From contig OX597833.1 of the NCBI GenBank assembly GCA_951406725.2, positions 56,792,001 through 56,856,000 on the forward strand: DNA of 64,000 nt. The letters are read 5' to 3'. Shown piece after piece: positions 12,531 through 46,241 of the stretch (position 1 is the first letter of the stretch; each line of letters begins with the position of its first letter). The DNA comes from Octopus vulgaris. Its lineage: Eukaryota. Below the pieces are notes generated by a model. That model was given only the letters and a program-made list of their open reading frames with translations. It searched no databases and was not told the origin of the DNA. The position numbers and the translations under genes are program-made.

Positions 12531-15191
12531 GTGTGTTTGATAAAAAATACCTATAATATCTTCTAACGAATGTATCAATCAGCATCTTTAGTATGAGCCT
12601 TGATTAGCTCGATTGAATTGATATCAAAAGATATATTTGCTTTGAATTAAAAGAAATTGGACACATGAAAAAAATATGATGAAAAAAATGTATGTATCAC
12701 ACATTAACTGTAAATGGAAACACACATTTTTATGAGCATATTATCAAATTGAAAAAATAATATCTGAAATCAGTTGACAACATTTAATTAAGACAATAAA
12801 AAAATATAAATAAAGAGCTGAACTTTAATTATGTCTCTTTAAAAGTTTTAATTTAAGCTTGAAAATTTTCAATGTACATATTTTTGTTCGCTTTAAAAAA
12901 AAAAAGGAAAAAACGGAAAAACTTGATAAAATCAGTTTTTAGTATGTAGACTGAAATTTTAGCAAAAAAAAAATAATAAAGAAAATCAATAAGCTCTGAG
13001 GTTATGCTATTCTTATTAAGGAATTCTAGCTGAGCAAAAGTCATGTTCCCTCTATAATATCACTAAAATATATATTTATCTTGTGTTTTAAACTTACAGA
13101 AAAAAAAAACTAATTTAACAAAAGAAGGAATCTTTAAAAAATATCAGCTAATATATATGTAAAGTTTCTTCTGTTTTTTGTGGCGCAAACTAAATAATAA
13201 GTTCTTAATAATTCCATGATATTTATTATTGCAATAAACAGTGATTCAAATGTAGTATTCTTTGAAATGGTATCAATATCTTATAGATAGAAGAATAAAA
13301 ATGAAGATCTGTATGAGTTGGTAATATTTGCCAATCTTGTTAATGCATAGATAAGTGGGCACCATTTTCATGTTAAAAATATACAAATGGGTATATTTAC
13401 CAGTATATTATACAGGTATCAATTTTGTAAACGGTACTTTCTGTTGATGTTATTTGACAAAATGACCAGCCCCGTTTCTTGATTTTATAGTGACATACAT
13501 TTGTCATTGACAACTGGAAACATTTTTATTGGGCTTGAAAACGGTAAGGAAATGGATGAAATGCTCAAATATTACAGGTAAGGTTGAAATCATTTCACTT
13601 TCATCATTCACCAGCATGCTACCAACAAGACAATGAGGACTATGAGTATACCAAGAGTATATCAAGAGGCTCACATCTACACAAGAATTTATATAGATTA
13701 TCTGAGACTGCAGTTTAAATGAACTAATAAAGAGTATGTACAAATGATGAGAATTGCCCAAATTAGAAACAATTTATATAAATTTTAAAACAATTTTTTT
13801 TGTGTTGTTTTATTACAAGGACAGTTTTGTTTAGTTTTTTGAATGATCTGCAAAGACCAAAAGATGCAAAGTAATTGTGTCTTAGATAAAATATGCTACA
13901 AATATAAACCAATATGGTTGTAGGTGAAGATCAATTTCTGTCGGCTTCAAATTTACAGTACATACTTAAACTAACCAGCAAATTTATAGTATGTACTTCA
14001 AATTGACAGCACACACTTAAACGGTCAGAGAATAATTACTATATAAAGGAAAAATGTTAGAAAAAGCAGTTTAGAAAGATCTAAAAATAAGAAAGTTATT
14101 TGAAAACTAATCAAATTTTAGTCTTCCAATAATTGATTTTACAATATAAATTGAGCTTGTCGTTTTAATTTCGGATAAAAATGTTTTTACCATTTAGGAA
14201 ATGAATTATCAAACGAGCTTTTTGAAAGAAGGTGTGTATTTTAGGCTACATAAACAACGAAATCTAGCATAAACAATTAAAACTGTAAAATCGTAAGTAA
14301 ATATTATAATATGCAATTGAAAATTAAAAATCTAAAAACAAAATAATTCAAAACAAGAAATTAAATTCTGCTGGAAATGCAAGTTAGAATCTAAATCTAA
14401 AAAACAAAGCAGCAAAAGAATTTGAATAAAAATTGAAAGTTAATTTTATTTTTAAATAATACTCTGCAGAAAATGTTTGTAATATGATGTAAAATTTTCC
14501 CCCATGTACAGGTATGGAAAACATTAAAAATAGTTCAATAAAAATCTAAAAGTTAACATAGTCAAGAGCTCTTACTTTATTTACCCCAACCCTCTCTTTT
14601 TAAGTAGATGATTGTGTTCAAGTTGGTGGCATGCTTTAGCCCACAAGTAGGAAAGGGCCAAATGTTTAGAACAATTCCGAGCATGGACAATGGACTTCTC
14701 TGCAGGGTGTCACCAAATATAATGCATCACACACAATTTTACAAGTAAAAAAAATCATTATTTCTCTTTTGAGAAAATAACATTTAAAGTTGATGTCTAT
14801 TGATTATGATAGATAATGTGAAGAATAATTGTCACATACAAAATACTATAATCTTTTTAATAGAAAATACTTAGAACCAAGATTGTTAGCAATAATTTTG
14901 CTAACATCTATTCCAAATGTCCTGCATGTGTGTTCTTCAGTTTGCATACTTAGATGCACGTTTATCTTCAAACTGTATGGTTCGTAATTTTACGTAAAGA
15001 ATTCTAGAAGTTTGAGAGTCTTAAAGATCCCCTGCAGCAAGTCCCAATAATAGAATCCAGTGGCAAGGAGTTTGCATGCGAACATTCAGGCTAATGGTAG
15101 TAGTAGTAGAAATGTATGTCTGTCGTAGAAAGCTTTTGAGGAGGGATAACTCCAAATATAGGACACACCAAAATACAAAGCAGTTAAACAA
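12228..15191 (-). other. Putative long 3' UTR of the 838-aa gene with alternative polyadenylation signals
   Basis: About 3 kb of AT-rich DNA with no recognisable transposon downstream of the stop. AATAAA on the minus strand at 13808-13813 and 12228-12233, each followed by U/GU-rich sequence. Confidence 0.5.
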
Positions 15192-17708
15192 CTACAGCAT
15201 ACCTTCCTCTGTTTGAACTTGGTTTTCTCCATTAGGAAGTGACTGTACATCCTGTGAATGACTTATCACATTGGACTCATTGTCCATATCTGCAGACACA
15301 GAACTGCTATTTTCAGTTGGAATTGTGGATTTCTGTACAGGTAATTCCTCCATTGCAACAGTTGGTTGCTGAGAAATTTCAGAATTATCTTTAACTACAA
15401 TAGATTCTTTGTCATCATCAGCAACAGGCACTTGTTCAACAGAACCAGAAATGTCTATCTGCTCAGCGCTGCTTGGACCATTTTCTGTAGATTTATCATT
15501 TTCAGTATTTGCTACCTCATTTTCAGCTGTTACCTCCTCAGTGTGACTGTCACCCTTTCCAGGTGCATTATCAATATCTTGTTCTGAGACTGCTTCTGAT
15601 GTAATTTCACCTGCTGGTGTTAATTCTGTTGCTATCGTCTCTGCTGCTTCTTTTACTTGTTCAGCTTCATCAGCTGATGCTTTCTCTTCCACTACATCAC
15701 TGCTATTATCCTCATTTGTTTTGGCTTCTGATGGTGTTAAAGCTGCCCCTTCTTCTGTATGTACAGACTGAGCAGATTCTTCTACAGCTGGTTGTTTTGT
15801 TTCCTCTTCTGATGGAATTTCCTCAACAGTTTCTTGGGGTTCTAAATGTTCTTCAGCTACAGATTCATGAGGTTCTTCAATAACAGCCTCTTTGAGTTCC
15901 TCAACCACAGCCTCTCCAGCCTCAGCCACTTGAGATTCTTCGACTGCAATTTTTTGCTGTTCTACAGCTTCGTGTTGCTTTTGCTCAAATTCCTGCTGAA
16001 CTTCTTCCAATACTGCTTCTACTAAGCTCTCTTCATAAGGTTTTTTAACAGGTTCTTCAACAATAGCAGTTTTCTCTTCAATATCCACTAAAACTGGGCT
16101 TTCTGTTGATTGTACCTCTTCAACTACAGATTTAACAGCACTAGCTGCTTCTTCTGTTGGTAGTATTAAGTCCTCTTCATAGGCACCTTTAGGAGAGGGT
16201 AATGCTGAAGGTACTTCAGCTGTCATCAAGTCAGTTGACAAAATATTGTTAGATTCAGTATGTTCACTCTTGAAAATCTCTTCAGTTTTCTCTTCATCTT
16301 CCACAACTGGTGGTGGAGGAGGAGGTAAGCTATCTTCTACTTGATGAGCAGCCTCTTCAATTTCTTGCTTCACAGTATCTACAACGGTGTCTACACTGGT
16401 CTCGGTGATGGCTTCAACAATGTTTCCACTGTCAACACTAGTTTCCTGGAGTTCAACCTTAGGCATAACCAGTGCATCTACACTAGTTTCAGTAGCATCA
16501 GGTTCAACAATTTTACCACTATCTACACTAGTCTCGGCAACATCAATATCCAGGGGAACAGCTGGAATATCAACAGGTTCTTCTTTAGAAACTTTATCTT
16601 CAACAAGTTCTTTAACATCACTACTATCAACATTAGATGTTAATACAGTAGATGATTCAGATTCTTTACTAGTGGGAAGAAATTTATCAATTAAAGAGGA
16701 GGGCATTTTCTCAGAAACAGCTGAAATAACAGTTGATACTTTCTCTTCAACAACAGGAACAACCACTTCTTCAACTTTATCAGCAACTTTAGTCACACCT
16801 TCTTTTACTTTTTCTGTAGCAAAGCTTACAATACCGGCATCTTTTGAATCACTTTCAACCTTTTTCACTTCAGTAACTGTTTCTGAAACGGTAGTGATAA
16901 TTGGCTCAGATTTAATTACTTTGCTGGACTCCTTGGTGAAATGTTGAACCTCAGTAACCACATCCTCTTTTGCAGGAACTGAGTCAATTGCTGAGCCGAC
17001 TGAGTCTGAAAATTTACTAACAGACGAAACTACAGTTTTATATTCTTGAGTGGAGCTACTGGTAATTTTGCTCACTGATTCAGTTGCGCTGGTAGTATGT
17101 TTGGTTACTGATTCTGATACATTGTTACTAAGAGTCTTCACAGATTCATTAGTACCAGACACAACTTTACTAACTTGCTCAGAAGCACTGCTTGTAATTT
17201 TGCTCACTTCTTTTGTGACCATAGTCTTACATTCCTCAGTAACAGATTTCACAACTTCAGATGCAACCTCCATTGCAGTTGCTTTAATATCTTCTGCAAC
17301 ATCTTTCTTGTCAACCATAACAAAATCTTCCTCTTTCTTTTCCAAAGTAGACTTAACTTCTTTAGTCACATCTGAGACAGTTGAAGCAGCTTCAGCTGTA
17401 GCAGATGCTACTTCATCTTTCTTTTCCTCAACCGCAGCTTCAACTTTAGCAGCTTCTGCACTCACAGCCTCTCCCACATCTGTCACATTTTTCAGTATGT
17501 CCAACTCTGTTTTATCTATTTGTATATCTGCGGTTCCTTCCTTGCTCACCTCAACACTAACCCCTTGGAGAAGTGGCTCTTGGGCATTTTCCCCAGAAGC
17601 TGCAGGACGTTCAAATAGCACATTTTCTTCATTTTTTTCAACAGGCTTATCTACTAAATTTTCTTCTTCAGCCTCTTTTTTGGCTTGTTTACCCAAAGAA
17701 CACCCCAT
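15192..17708 (-). CDS. Uninterrupted ORF for an 838-aa acidic, intrinsically disordered, probably N-myristoylated/palmitoylated membrane scaffold (AKAP12/GAP43/BASP1/smAKAP-like architecture; no orthologue recognised)
   Basis: 2.5-kb stop-free ORF in AT-rich DNA. ATG context is AAACATGG, with an in-frame TGA upstream at 17748-17750. N-terminus is MGCSLGKQAKK. E/V/S/T/A/K-rich, with no Trp, a single Arg and two Cys. No transposon motifs. Confidence 0.9.
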   Translation of the reverse strand: MGCSLGKQAKKEAEEENLVDKPVEKNEENVLFERPAASGENAQEPLLQGVSVEVSKEGTADIQIDKTELDILKNVTDVGEAVSAEAAKVEAAVEEKKDEVASATAEAASTVSDVTKEVKSTLEKKEEDFVMVDKKDVAEDIKATAMEVASEVVKSVTEECKTMVTKEVSKITSSASEQVSKVVSGTNESVKTLSNNVSESVTKHTTSATESVSKITSSSTQEYKTVVSSVSKFSDSVGSAIDSVPAKEDVVTEVQHFTKESSKVIKSEPIITTVSETVTEVKKVESDSKDAGIVSFATEKVKEGVTKVADKVEEVVVPVVEEKVSTVISAVSEKMPSSLIDKFLPTSKESESSTVLTSNVDSSDVKELVEDKVSKEEPVDIPAVPLDIDVAETSVDSGKIVEPDATETSVDALVMPKVELQETSVDSGNIVEAITETSVDTVVDTVKQEIEEAAHQVEDSLPPPPPPVVEDEEKTEEIFKSEHTESNNILSTDLMTAEVPSALPSPKGAYEEDLILPTEEAASAVKSVVEEVQSTESPVLVDIEEKTAIVEEPVKKPYEESLVEAVLEEVQQEFEQKQHEAVEQQKIAVEESQVAEAGEAVVEELKEAVIEEPHESVAEEHLEPQETVEEIPSEEETKQPAVEESAQSVHTEEGAALTPSEAKTNEDNSSDVVEEKASADEAEQVKEAAETIATELTPAGEITSEAVSEQDIDNAPGKGDSHTEEVTAENEVANTENDKSTENGPSSAEQIDISGSVEQVPVADDDKESIVVKDNSEISQQPTVAMEELPVQKSTIPTENSSSVSADMDNESNVISHSQDVQSLPNGENQVQTEEGML

Positions 17709-18800
17709 GTTTCCTAGCTTACAGTAATTTCTATTTCTCAGAAAATCTCACAAAAATAAGTTTGTATTTAGCTTCACGTTCTCCTTTACTTTCTTAACTT
17801 CTTATTTTTCTTTCAAAGAAAAAAAACTTACAGATCAACAAATAACTTTGAAGAAACAGAAATACTTCTATTTTTTTCCCTTTTGTTGTAAATTATTAAA
17901 GATATAGTGGACTTCGTTAAAGCATACTTAATTCAACAAAACAACAGCAAATCATTCAAATTACAAAATCCAACAAAAATATGTATGCAAAGTCTTTCAA
18001 AGGAGGATATTTGTCATGGATAAAGCAAATATTTTCTCAACTGAAATACTAAATCCAAATAAGGTACTCCAAGTGTTTAATGTTTCCAATATAATTCAAA
18101 AGTAGAAAATTCCAGGTTTCTCTTTTAGTTAGGTATTCAATCAAGAAAAAAAAAAGTTGTGTAAATCCACGTGAAAGCCACAATTATTGCAACTAATTAA
18201 CAGAAGCTAAGTGAGGAAAACCAACTCACCAAAAAAAAGTTGTAGCAAGAATTCTTGAAATACAAATTGAAAATTTTTTTTTTACACAATAATATAAAAA
18301 AAAGTATTTTTTTTTCCTCTCTTTTTAGCACGTGTGATAGTAAAAAATGGCTTATCCAGTACTGCAATTTCTTTTTCTAGTAAAGAATAAATCTCCAAAA
18401 TGTAAATATGAAATAATCCGAGAGTGTAGAATGAAGAAATCAGTCCAAGTTGGTGTTATAAGGTGTGGGCTTTTTGCTTTCTTCAAGAGCCAGCACAAAA
18501 CATATACTGCTATCTCCTCGACAATTATTACAGATAAAATACAAAGGTATATCCCAGCAGAAAAACTGTAATCTTTTTACCAGAATTTGATTTTCATGAA
18601 GTCTTAATTAATTGATTCCAGGATGCATTTCTAACATCACTGCTACAAGACAAACCTTCTGTCAAATTAAGGAGTTCTGTGGTGTGCGCGCGGCTCTGAT
18701 ATGCAGTCTGTAAGCACAGACAAAACCAGGCAATGTAGCTGACTGCTCAGGAGGAAAGCAGAGGGCAGTAGTGGCTGGTTAGAAATCCTAGCTGCCACTC
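17709..18800 (-). promoter_or_regulatory. Putative 5' UTR/proximal promoter of the 838-aa gene
   Basis: Unique, repeat-free sequence. CACGTG at 18168-18173 and 18329-18334, and a CpG patch GTGCGCGCGG near 18683-18693. Possible minus-strand acceptors at 18041 (TATTTCAG) and 18708 (TTTTGTCTGTGCTTACAG). Confidence 0.35.
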
Positions 18801-38327: not shown

Positions 38328-39524
38328 TATTTGTTGCTCAATTCAAAGGCTGTTGAGCAGAAATAGGTGAATTGTAATTTGAAGGAAGTTCTTTCTTGTG
38401 TATTTACTGCCATGTGAATAGTGCCCCAACTTATTTTTTTCTCTTGGTGACAAAAGAAAACAACAAAAAAACAAAACAAAATGCTATGAGGGGGAAGCTA
38501 GGATTTGAAATAGAAACCTTATGGCTTCTAATTAGATGCTCATCTAGTACATGTAGCTTTTAGTATTAAGGGAAGAAATAAAGTAAAGGAAATTTATGTG
38601 AGTAAAGTTAAAATAAAGTGGTTCTTTAGAATGTAAGATAAGCAAAATCAAAATATATGTTCATTCATTATAGACACAGCCACAAGAGAATGAATAACTT
38701 TGCTGTGATTTTCTTTCAATGTTGAAACGGAAGTAAAGGTCAGGCAGGGTTGGAACTAGATGTTCTATGATTAAAAGCATCAATGGACTCTTTTATAACT
38801 AAGAATAGCAAAGTTGTTGTTTCGATTTTTGTTATTACTACTAGTGTCTTCTTTTCAAATGGCTCTTCTTCCCTTACAAATGCAAAGCAAAGGAAGAGTC
38901 AGATTAAATGAAAAAGACTTTTGTTCTTCATGTGGGATATAATGAGAAAAATCTACGGAATGTTTGAAGAACAAAAATACTTTAGTATTTATCAACAGAA
39001 GCAATGAAGAAACCATGTAGATGGAATTTAATTAATTAAACATCCAGCTAACGAAAACAGTTTAATTGAACCTAAATGTAACCAAAACAACCCTATTTTC
39101 TAAGTCACTATTCCTTTTACCTTTCTGACTTGGAATTTTTGTAGTTTATCTTTCTGTTTCACTTCCTTTTGCACTTTTTTTTTAATGGATATTTTCAAAT
39201 TTCTTAGCTTTTTTATATTTACTTTTGGAGCAAAATATTGTTCTTATTACCAAATCAATCAATTGGTCTGAGACTGGTACGTAACCAAAAGTTGGTGGGA
39301 TGTAACAAAATATTTCAGTTTATTAATAGGATTTCAAATAGATACTCAAACCACTCAGCTATCACTATTCCAATATTATGCTATCATTTGTTACTGATAT
39401 ATATGAGTGAGAATATATTAAGCAACACAGTCATCAATCAGCTAACAGTAACAGAATATTTAGTATTTTCATTGGCAAAAATGCACTTGAGAAAATATAT
39501 TTATCATTCATATTTCTACTATAA

Positions 39525-39915
39525 AAATGAACTAGGAGCAGAGGAGTGGCTGGTGAGAGCTGTACAAACCATGTACAGGGATGCTGTCAGTAAGGTGAGG
39601 GTTGGCAACGAGTATAGCGATGACTTCAGTGTACAAGTAGGAGTCCACCAAGGATCAGTCCTCATCCCCCTTTTGTTCATCATATTCCTCCAAGCAATGA
39701 CAGAGGAATTTAAGTCTGACTGCTCTTGGGAGCTCCTTTATGTTGATGACACTGTTCTTATAACTGAATCACAACCAGAACTGGAGAAAAAATTTCAGGA
39801 CTGGAAGCGAGGTCTGGAATCAAAGGACCTCAGAATTAATTTAGAAAAAGCCAAAGTCTCAATTAGTAGGAAAGCTGAGAAATCACATATCGCTTCAGGC
39901 TGATGGCCCTGTTCA
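39525..39915 (+). mobile_element. RTE LINE RT-core fragment
   Basis: LGAEEWLVRAVQTMYRDAVSKVRVG...GVHQGSVLIPLLFII...WELLYVDD. The ORF's N-terminal half (39238-39524) is unrelated read-through. Confidence 0.85.
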
Positions 39916-44966: not shown

Positions 44967-46241
44967 CAAACTTGGGTACCAAACTGTTAATTATCAATTA
45001 ATGAAGTCAACATTTTCGTTAACAATCTAACTTTTAAGTTAACTCTGGAAATCATTATTGGACTAATTAACTTCCGTTAATTCAAGTTTGCTTGAGTTTT
45101 AACTTCCATTAGCACAAGTTACTGCAATGATCTTTAGGCTCAAGTCAAAGGGCCTTGTCTACTGCAGCCCCTTGGTCAACACACTTTTGGCAGGCATTGA
45201 CAAAAGGTTTAGGACCCTCCTGGAAGATGAAGAATGCCAGATGGCTGCTGCCTTCCACCTCATGTTTTGCTTCATCTTGTTGAAGTATGACAACACCAAG
45301 ATTACCAAGGTGAGGAAAAGCACAGAGGGTAAGGTTGAGGAGGCCATGGGACAGCAGTCTGACAAAGTGAGCAGCAACAGTGAAGGCAGCAACAGCAAAG
45401 AGGAGAAGGATGACTTCTTCAGTGGTGTCACCCAGCCAAAAGAAAGCAGCAGGAGCCACAGATCACTCAAGGACAAGGCCCAGAATTTGATCAAGACTTG
45501 GTTGGAGACCGACTCCAAGGACTTGCTGGCAGATGCTGCTTTCTTGAGTGAGCAAGTGTTGGCGGACTTGTTCATCAAGTTCAGCACAGCCATCCCCTCT
45601 AGTGCTGCAGTGAAGCATTTGTTCTCTATAGGCAAGGACATCATGAGGGCCAAGAGATCATCCTTCTCTGATGGAAACATTGACATGCTAGTTTTCATGA
45701 AGGGCAACATGTATCTCATGAACAAAATGGAGAATGAGAAGAAAAATTAAATTATATATATATATATCATGTTTTTAATTTTTTATTTCTATCTTTTTAC
45801 AGCCACTTTATCAATAAACTTTTTAGTTTAAAACTAATATTGTTTCATTTGAGTTTTTTTTTTTTTTTTTTACCCTTTTCTGGTTCTAAAATCCTTTAGA
45901 AACCTAAAATGGGGCCAAAAAAGGGACCTAAAATCAGCCTTGTTTTAGGTCTTTTAAAAGTTAAAACTTCAAAATCAGCATTTTTTAACTCTAAAGCAAA
46001 AAAAGAAATTATAGTTTTTGGGTTCTAAAGCTCTTAAAAAGACCCAAAAAGGCCGATTTTTATAGTTTTGGCACTTTTTGAAGGTGTTTTAGGTGGTTTT
46101 AGAGCAAAAACTGATTTTTTTGTTATTTCTATGATAAAAATTCATGTTAACGGTTTATCCATAACTTCCATTACAATTTTACAGATTTAACTGATTAATG
46201 GTTATCAAAGTTAACTTTTCGATTAAGGGTGCCCAGCTTTG
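44967..46241 (+). mobile_element. Internally deleted hAT DNA transposon (1275 bp)
   Basis: 8-bp TSD CTATTTAG at 44959-44966 and 46242-46249. Imperfect TIRs CAAACTTGGGTACC / GGTGCCCAGCTTTG, repeated GTTAA(C) subterminal motifs and an internal transposase C-terminus. Confidence 0.9.
45127..45750 (+). pseudogene. hAT transposase C-terminal fragment (dimerisation domain), catalytic Glu lost
   Basis: LFIKFSTAIPSSAAVKHLFSIGKDIMRAKRSSFSDGNIDMLVFMK matches the hAT P-S-S-A-x-x-E-R-L-F-S...R-S-x-L-S-D motif, with ER replaced by KH at 45613-45618. Confidence 0.85.

Follow-up and report, generated by a model that had tools for sequence, protein, structure and literature searches.

A putative Atg8-binding motif next to a long amphipathic helix in a predicted acylated octopus protein of the SPA17 locus

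Introduction

Is a short acidic motif around a single phenylalanine in an octopus protein a binding site for the autophagy protein Atg8, and what is the amphipathic helix next to it for? These questions are raised by a 64,000-nucleotide stretch of the Octopus vulgaris genome (contig OX597833.1, positions 56,792,001 to 56,856,000; called the window here), in which a single coding exon on the minus strand (15192..17708) encodes a stand-alone protein of 838 amino acids (P0001; isoelectric point (pI) 4.2, 90 kDa). No other long open reading frame (ORF) is present in this region besides 17708-15192. An initial annotation of the DNA had compared the motif EEDFVMVD with the LC3-interacting regions (LIRs) of ULK1 and ATG13, and the helix behind it with the one in D-AKAP2, which has the spacing AxxIAxxIVxxV, and had proposed a membrane-tethered autophagy receptor for protein kinase A (PKA). 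We find that the LIR lies above the chance level and that the pattern of an A-kinase anchoring protein (AKAP) does not clearly do so. The reading we prefer, with a probability of about 0.42, is an acyl-anchored adaptor or receptor between a membrane and Atg8, in which an extended LIR would recruit Atg8, a long helix would bind lipid and splicing could add IQ motifs.

Results

The motif is located at aa126-133 (17333-17310, minus strand), where the initial annotation had placed it, and motifs containing an aromatic residue are indeed few, with 11 aromatics in 838 residues and two plain LIR cores, at F129 and Y223. The core F129-V130-M131-V132 (17324-17313) fits the general pattern [W/F/Y]-x-x-[L/I/V] as well as the GABARAP interaction motif (GIM) [W/F]-[V/I]-x-V, and it is preceded by three acids, E126, E127 and D128, at positions -3 to -1. 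The ULK1 and ATG13 LIRs used for the comparison had been quoted correctly (TDDFVMVPA and HDDFVMIDF; PMC5538626). The likeness to known LIRs goes beyond the core, since there is an aspartate at +4, an acid at +7 (D136) and a hydrophobic residue at +8 (V137), and a helix begins at aa134 in low-confidence models; the extended LIR thus spans aa126-141 (17286..17333). A class of LIRs with a core and a C-terminal helix (C-helix) has been described for FAM134B, SEC62 and Ede1, with an acid at +7 and a hydrophobic residue at +8 or +11 (PMC8727931). Binding of the ULK1 LIR to LC3 was reported to be raised slightly by T354E at -3 and strongly by P361D at +4 (PMC6499816), and acidic N-terminal flanks as well as the +7 acid are described as enriched in LC3B binders in a preprint (10.64898/2026.01.05.697675).

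Two structure models, both calculated from the single sequence and with a mean predicted local distance difference test (pLDDT) of 53 and 71, agree that aa66-127 is helical, that aa128-133 (pLDDT 56-67) interrupts the helix and that a helix resumes at aa134. The first of these helices (17328..17513) is weakly amphipathic and stops just ahead of the LIR core; the periodicity of aa76-125 was no higher than in shuffled sequences (138/500). With a ULK1-type core, the extended layout and a position in a predicted non-helical break, the LIR half of the initial proposal comes out stronger than it had been stated.

The frequency of such motifs in shuffled sequences depends strongly on how much of the layout is included. 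A plain LIR core was present in 93% of 20,000 shuffles and the xLIR pattern in 39%, compared to 1.1% for two acids followed by a GABARAP-type core and 0.01% for the exact ULK1-like hexamer, the latter chosen post hoc. The composite layout of two acids, GIM core, +7 acid and +8 hydrophobic residue occurred in 22 of 30,000 global and 11 of 10,000 block shuffles (292 of 30,000 global ones without the restriction to GIM), and none of the 124 other proteins compared contained it (140,604 residues, a redundant set). Since the composite pattern was built after the sequence had been seen, these rates flatter the LIR. Judged from its sequence, the LIR peptide would probably bind Atg8 in vitro, and for its use in vivo we see close to an even chance, leaning slightly to the negative side.

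The second half of the initial proposal concerned the segment IKATAMEVASEVVKSV, found at aa141-156 (17288-17241) as placed before, which is part of an AKAP-like window at aa140-161 (17226..17291). AKAP helices are described as amphipathic helices of 14-18 residues with hydrophobic residues at positions 2, 5, 6, 9, 10, 13, 14 and 17 (PMC12083921). The best windows of the protein are the 18-mers starting at aa140 and aa144, the only ones with seven of these eight face positions; 19 windows have six and none has all eight. A window with at least seven was present somewhere in 61% of 2,000 shuffles. The A-x-x-V spacing that the initial annotation had pointed out is rarer (0.95% of shuffles), yet it had been fitted to this sequence. 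Of three AKAP patterns, a loose consensus matches four places in the protein and is present in 92% of shuffles, and two stricter ones have no match in the protein. Face position 14 is a Thr. Helix positions 1-2 are D-I in the aa140 register and T-A in the aa144 register, and thus differ from the phenylalanine or tyrosine followed by alanine (F/Y-A) that is reported for 97.7% of type I helices (PMC12083921) and is present in the AKAP220/AKAP11 site for the type I regulatory subunit (RI). In addition, sequence matches came only from Octopus and no Pfam domain was found at its cut-off, which does not agree with orthology to AKAP11 or D-AKAP2.

The AKAP-like window is contained in a much longer element, a degenerate 11-mer amphipathic helix of the 3-11 type at aa134-242 (16983..17309), which is rich in Val, Ala, Thr and Ser and almost free of aromatics. 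The hydrophobic period of aa137-246 is 3.69 (0/500 shuffles), with a lag-11 identity peak of 0.24. For aa134-242 the length is 109 residues, the moment 0.31 and the hydrophobic, aromatic and charged contents are 0.31, 0.018 and 0.26; the corresponding values given in Table 1 of PMC5889406 are 90, 0.35, 0.37, 0.01 and 0.23 for Plin3 and 89, 0.30, 0.47, 0.02 and 0.24 for alpha-synuclein. This 3-11 periodicity of low hydrophobicity is a property of perilipin and synuclein helices, and aa134-242 may bind lipid. A Val- and Ala-rich 11-mer helix gives AKAP-like spacing by itself. The helix adjacent to the motif is likely the C-helix of the LIR plus the start of a lipid-binding 11-mer helix, rather than a PKA anchor. 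The proposed PKA anchor is unlikely, given the missing F/Y-A, the Thr at face position 14, a window at chance level and a helix that runs on to aa242; of the membrane-tethered PKA autophagy receptor, the LIR and the tether (Gly2, Cys3) are the parts that agree with the sequence. Searches of sequences in the Protein Data Bank (PDB) with aa117-161 and aa98-345 returned designed proteins or weak matches only.

In a second, strongly amphipathic stretch (aa291-334; 16707..16838) the 18-mer hydrophobic moment reaches its maximum for the protein. The sole FA dipeptide, at aa296, is combined with six of eight AKAP face positions and a Lys at position 5. The spacing of Lys, Glu, Gly and Val in this stretch resembles that of synuclein repeats.

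At its N-terminus the protein has a predicted acylation signal (aa1-8; 17685..17708) with Gly2 for myristoylation and Cys3 for palmitoylation; the myristoylation call is a fit to a PROSITE-like pattern. A Pfam scan of the 838 residues gave no family at its cut-off. The NCBI names golgin B1 and IgA1 protease autotransporter-like were dismissed as low-complexity labels, such domains being absent on scanning. Four spaced ETSVD repeats (aa392, 407, 422 and 436; 16386..16544) lie about 15 residues apart and are followed by a run of six prolines (16325-16308), and they might be phosphorylation or proline-binding sites. With this proline run starts an acidic low-complexity tail (aa460-835; 15204..16331), presumably a disordered spacer.

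NCBI models make the exon (aa1-835) an alternative first coding exon of an Octopus SPA17-family gene, which the initial annotation could not see from the letters alone. The sequence aa1-835 is identical to four Octopus sinensis gene models, which leave the exon after aa835 and continue with 3-6 IQ motifs. They use a phase-1 splice donor after the G at 15203 (15197..15203, minus strand; GT at 15202-15201), and read-through at this donor adds Gly-Met-Leu and a stop codon. Compared with Sp17, the spliced octopus forms match from aa828-921 (E 3e-5). Proteins that combine a dimerization and docking (D/D) domain with IQ motifs are the best relatives of the spliced continuation (best 120 of 353 matches), and one of them, from a chiton, matches Sp17 with E 7e-35. 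The segment behind the D/D domain and the IQ motifs of the SPA17 family are present in the spliced models only, and the RIIa D/D domain is absent from all five long or orthologous proteins scanned. Neither the D/D exon nor the IQ exons were found by tblastn inside the window.

The junction is common to 42 of 130 proteins, of which 37 have a D/D exon ahead of it, four are from octopus and one is from Mytilus. The latter, isoform X2 of Mytilus trossulus, has a 31-residue Gly2 exon at the junction, and isoforms X1, X3 and X4 carry the D/D domain. The 42 rows contain redundant isoforms and close species, and thus represent two lineages, not 42 events. The SPA17 D/D domain has been reported to bind AKAP18 helices with 9.6 uM alone and with 82 nM together with ROPN1L (PMC8339350), so that the octopus exon stands where an AKAP-binding domain would be. 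Modelling two chiton SPA17 D/D domains (aa1-75) in complex with octopus aa124-200 gave scores of 0.20 and 0.25 compared to a mark of 0.34, in alignment-free runs without controls and with another species as a stand-in, and we count these scores neither for nor against docking.

The SPA17-family relatives show further variation. In the long octopus forms P0002, P0004 and P0006 a histidine-rich exon is alternatively included in the IQ region (aa954-990), and it is absent from P0005. Mussel proteins of the family (Mytilus trossulus P0082 and P0129) end in a Pex19-family domain (E ~1e-16) and a CaaX-like end, and scallop and nemertean relatives (P0031, P0054, P0098) share the same four C-terminal residues. 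The long octopus forms have no Pex19-type end; a SPA17-PEX19 fusion is possible in several lophotrochozoans. Crustacean multi-IQ relatives (Daphnia and Notodromas; P0103, P0122, P0105) start with Gly2 myristoylation-type signals and do not have the shared junction motif. The Daphnia relative has cysteines at positions 8-9 and roughly 790 acidic residues ahead of the first IQ motif, like the spliced octopus form.

Which form is made can be judged in part from transcript contigs, which were compared for four of the 24 listed runs (X3, X17, X18 and X20). X3 was taken as RNA by guess, and X17 and X18 are RNA on record and diverged from the window. One contig of 5,768 letters in X3 covers 13400-18282 and crosses the donor unspliced, as do contigs of X17 and X18, and X20 does not cover it. 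No splice joint at 15203 was found in the contigs of the four runs, which drop rare forms, and unspliced contigs could also stem from DNA or pre-mRNA. The motif region itself is covered by X17 (16980-17875, with 45 differing letters); X18 lies outside it and X20 only touches the ORF. Beyond the stop codon, the X3 contig continues unspliced (13400..15191) and for 885 letters further, likely the 3´ untranslated region of the stand-alone form. On the other side a 5´ leader with seven upstream ATGs (17709..18800) is continuous with the ORF in X3. This leader is largely covered in the diverged X17 too, and acceptor-like sites lie at about 18207, 18743 and 18838. The stand-alone protein is on NCBI record for the cluster of this genome and for O. 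bimaculoides, where the read-through end is the same. Together with the unspliced contigs these records make the stand-alone form look common; the IQ forms are known from gene models.

The O. bimaculoides orthologue is 94-96% identical, with 31 substitutions over 838 residues. The region aa106-189 is free of substitutions between the two species (P=0.04 at the rate of the protein, for a region chosen post hoc). A phmmer search with aa1-250 against 1.84 billion representatives returned a single match, from Octopus. The ESM Atlas yielded no homologue of the exon, none of 535 pattern matches in metagenome contigs was confirmed, and aa1-345 had no match among the 124 other family proteins. The Gly2-type first segments of the Mytilus, Daphnia and Notodromas relatives (four proteins) contain neither an acidic LIR nor a helix with seven of eight AKAP face positions. 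From these comparisons the combination of LIR and helix looks specific to octopods.

Elsewhere in the window a reverse-transcriptase remnant is present at 39208-39903 (plus strand; RVT_1, E 3e-11), and a frame of 215 codons at 45103-45750 (plus strand) looks by eye like the C-terminus of a transposase, without a Pfam match at E 0.01.

Discussion

How might such a protein work? Myristoylation of Gly2 and palmitoylation of Cys3 would fix it to the cytoplasmic face of a membrane, and the 3-11 helix at aa134-242 could cover a lipid surface in the manner of perilipin-3 or alpha-synuclein. The unpaired segment aa126-137 would then dock into GABARAP or LC3: F129 and V132 would fill the two pockets, the acids would face the basic patch, and D136 and V137 would contact the conserved Arg and helix 3. 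The outcome would be an adaptor or receptor that connects a coated membrane or a lipid body with Atg8. Read-through at the donor at 15203 would yield the stand-alone form, and splicing, according to the gene models, would put the calmodulin-binding IQ motifs of SPA17 in place of the D/D domain and generate a form similar to GAP-43 and igloo.

Several points weigh against this reading. The composite LIR pattern was defined post hoc, and even a rate of 1% or 0.07% per protein still gives chance cases across a proteome; the authors of iLIR themselves describe many false positives from xLIR-type patterns (PMC5119064). Between the two Octopus species there are no changes in aa126-161, but given the substitution rate of the whole protein this has a P of 0.26 and does not speak for the motif. 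Word-indexed searches with the whole protein and with aa1-260, which covered near lengths only, gave no homologue beyond Octopus, and an acidic LIR is absent from the corresponding exons in Mytilus, Daphnia and the ostracod, which argues that the LIR is not an ancestral feature. According to the two single-sequence models, the LIR could also form a tight hairpin turn between two helices. The segments for the periodicity analysis were picked by eye, with eight tested, and the 11-mer region is degenerate, with a net charge of -2 compared to the basic helix of Plin4; searches for a perilipin or synuclein match gave none in Pfam to E 1, among PDB sequences to E 10 and with Foldseek at E 0.001. Finally, the splice to SPA17 rests on gene models, with the D/D and IQ exons lying beyond the window.

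It is quite possible, if short of an even chance, that the LIR is incidental, in a lineage-specific acylated acidic protein of the cortical membrane in the style of GAP-43, igloo or MARCKS. Such a protein would work through its acyl anchor and amphipathic helices, plus the IQ motifs in its spliced form. The acylation signal, the low pI and the 3-6 IQ motifs of the spliced models fit such a protein, and igloo has been named an invertebrate GAP43-like gene and a calpacitin (PMC6917273, PMC9618489). The frequency of xLIR patterns in shuffles, the other Gly2-start forms of the SPA17 family that have no acidic LIR, and an exon that turns over fast, without homologues found beyond Octopus, point in the same direction. 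What argues for a functional LIR instead is that the core, the GIM pattern, the N-terminal acids and positions +4, +7 and +8 are all satisfied together, that the motif sits at a helix break in both models, and that the substitution-free region includes it, with the reservation given above for its choice.

Another explanation, which we consider rather unlikely and which is compatible with either functional reading, is that the ORF forms an intronless gene of its own inside a SPA17 intron, with spliced fusions that are rare or annotation artefacts. The four runs without a joint at 15203, three of which cross the donor, as well as the stand-alone proteins recorded for two species and the unmatched aa1-345 would agree with this. 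However, splicing from the donor keeps the frame and leads to the exon start that is also used by the D/D exon and by the Gly2 exon of Mytilus; four separate O. sinensis models use this donor, and the contigs drop rare forms.

In an extended version of the preferred adaptor reading, a short myristoylated first exon of SPA17 grew in octopuses to the 2.5-kb exon, and skipping of the donor produced a doubly acylated coat protein similar to synuclein and perilipin with a high-affinity LIR. This would be a selective autophagy receptor born in this lineage and directed at vesicles or lipid bodies, which splicing could switch to a calmodulin-binding form similar to GAP-43. We regard this full scenario as doubtful. 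If it were true, PKA binding by the first turns of the helix would come on top, and the exchange of D/D for an acylated exon would point to an origin of invertebrate GAP-43-like IQ proteins at the SPA17 locus.

That aa140-161 is a true PKA-anchoring helix, in a convergent membrane-tethered receptor or scaffold of the AKAP11 type that couples PKA to autophagosomes, seems very unlikely. The idea has precedents: the type II consensus is described as degenerate (PMC12083921), AKAP11 captures the RI holoenzyme for autophagy by its LIR (PMC12130464), FAM134B is reported to bind RI-alpha by a helix of its disordered tail beside its LIR (preprint 10.1101/2025.11.01.685922) and Drosophila AKAP200 is made with and without the PKA site (PMC5785023). 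In this protein the windows at aa140 and aa144 are the only ones with seven face positions, and the spacing first noted is rare in shuffles. Yet windows of this quality are frequent in shuffles and none is complete, the stricter patterns and F/Y-A are missing, and the helix, instead of being a discrete element, opens a repeat helix of 109 residues. Furthermore, the aa140 register begins three residues past the +8 position, which may crowd both partners; in AKAP11 the LIR (aa1736-1739) and the nearest RI site (aa1650-1663) are about 70 residues apart (PMC12130464). It is highly improbable that the helix docks into the D/D domain of the canonical SPA17 product of the same gene, or into a SPA17-ROPN1L dimer, with one isoform anchoring the other at the membrane, since the helix statistics are as weak as for PKA and no octopus isoform with a D/D domain is present among the NCBI models and in the window, even though the SPA17 D/D binds AKAP18 helices and the exon replaces exactly this domain.

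If the LIR works, the octopus protein would be a selective-autophagy adaptor apparently confined to octopods. If the 11-mer helix binds lipid, it would be a candidate invertebrate analogue of synuclein and perilipin chemistry; synucleins are not known outside vertebrates. Apart from autophagy, the gene models of octopus and mussel exchange the AKAP-binding D/D domain of SPA17 for a lipid-anchor exon at one junction. The PKA receptor would be a convergent copy of the mammalian AKAP11 and FAM134B designs and is the least supported part. We found no paper on such an exchange of D/D for an acylated exon in octopus or mollusc SPA17, and none on this gene or on LIR-Atg8 interaction in octopus, in a search that was thin on subscription journals.

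The comparison with known systems shows which parts are familiar. The F-V-M-V core is identical to that of ULK1, and the acids at -1 and -2 are shared with the ULK1 and ATG13 LIRs. In contrast to the octopus motif with its Asp at +4 and +7 and its predicted helix, those LIRs have no +7 acid and no C-helix in the available account (PMC6499816), and the octopus host is neither a kinase nor a HORMA protein, having no Pfam domain at its cut-off. Closer in layout are FAM134B, SEC62 and Ede1, and also AnkG/B and FYCO1, in which a +7 acid, a +8 hydrophobic residue and a helix follow the core, with FAM134B D459 as a counterpart of the Asp at +4 (PMC8727931). Like the receptors FAM134B, SEC62 and Ede1, the octopus protein is (by prediction) attached to a membrane and has a large acidic disordered part. 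However, its predicted anchor is an acyl group instead of transmembrane segments, sequence homology is absent, the helix continues for roughly 100 residues and position +11 is Asp rather than hydrophobic.

The helix itself is in the range of the perilipin-3/4 and alpha-synuclein helices in period, length, moment and low aromatic content. It differs from them in being slightly acidic and in following a predicted acyl anchor and a LIR, and neither a family or structure match nor a PAT domain or four-helix bundle was detected. With AKAP11/AKAP220 and FAM134B-PRKAR1A the octopus protein shares a largely disordered chain that carries both a LIR and an amphipathic helix, and with Drosophila AKAP200 the design of a (predicted) myristoylated scaffold with alternative forms (PMC5785023), but it has no homology to these proteins, no FA motif in the helix and no discrete helix. 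AKAP220 is described as having arisen at the base of the vertebrates and dAKAP2 as an old separate gene.

The spliced octopus forms resemble SPA17/Sp17, a protein with an R2D2-type D/D domain and an IQ motif, in the segment behind the D/D domain and in their 3-6 IQ motifs, whereas the 835-residue exon replaces the D/D domain and the stand-alone form keeps no SPA17 sequence. GAP-43 and igloo are acylated, acidic and IQ-bearing, and the spliced forms, with acylation predicted, have the same design; the form favoured by the RNA contigs has no IQ motif. Thus, each part of the octopus protein has a known counterpart, and it is their combination and origin that are unusual.

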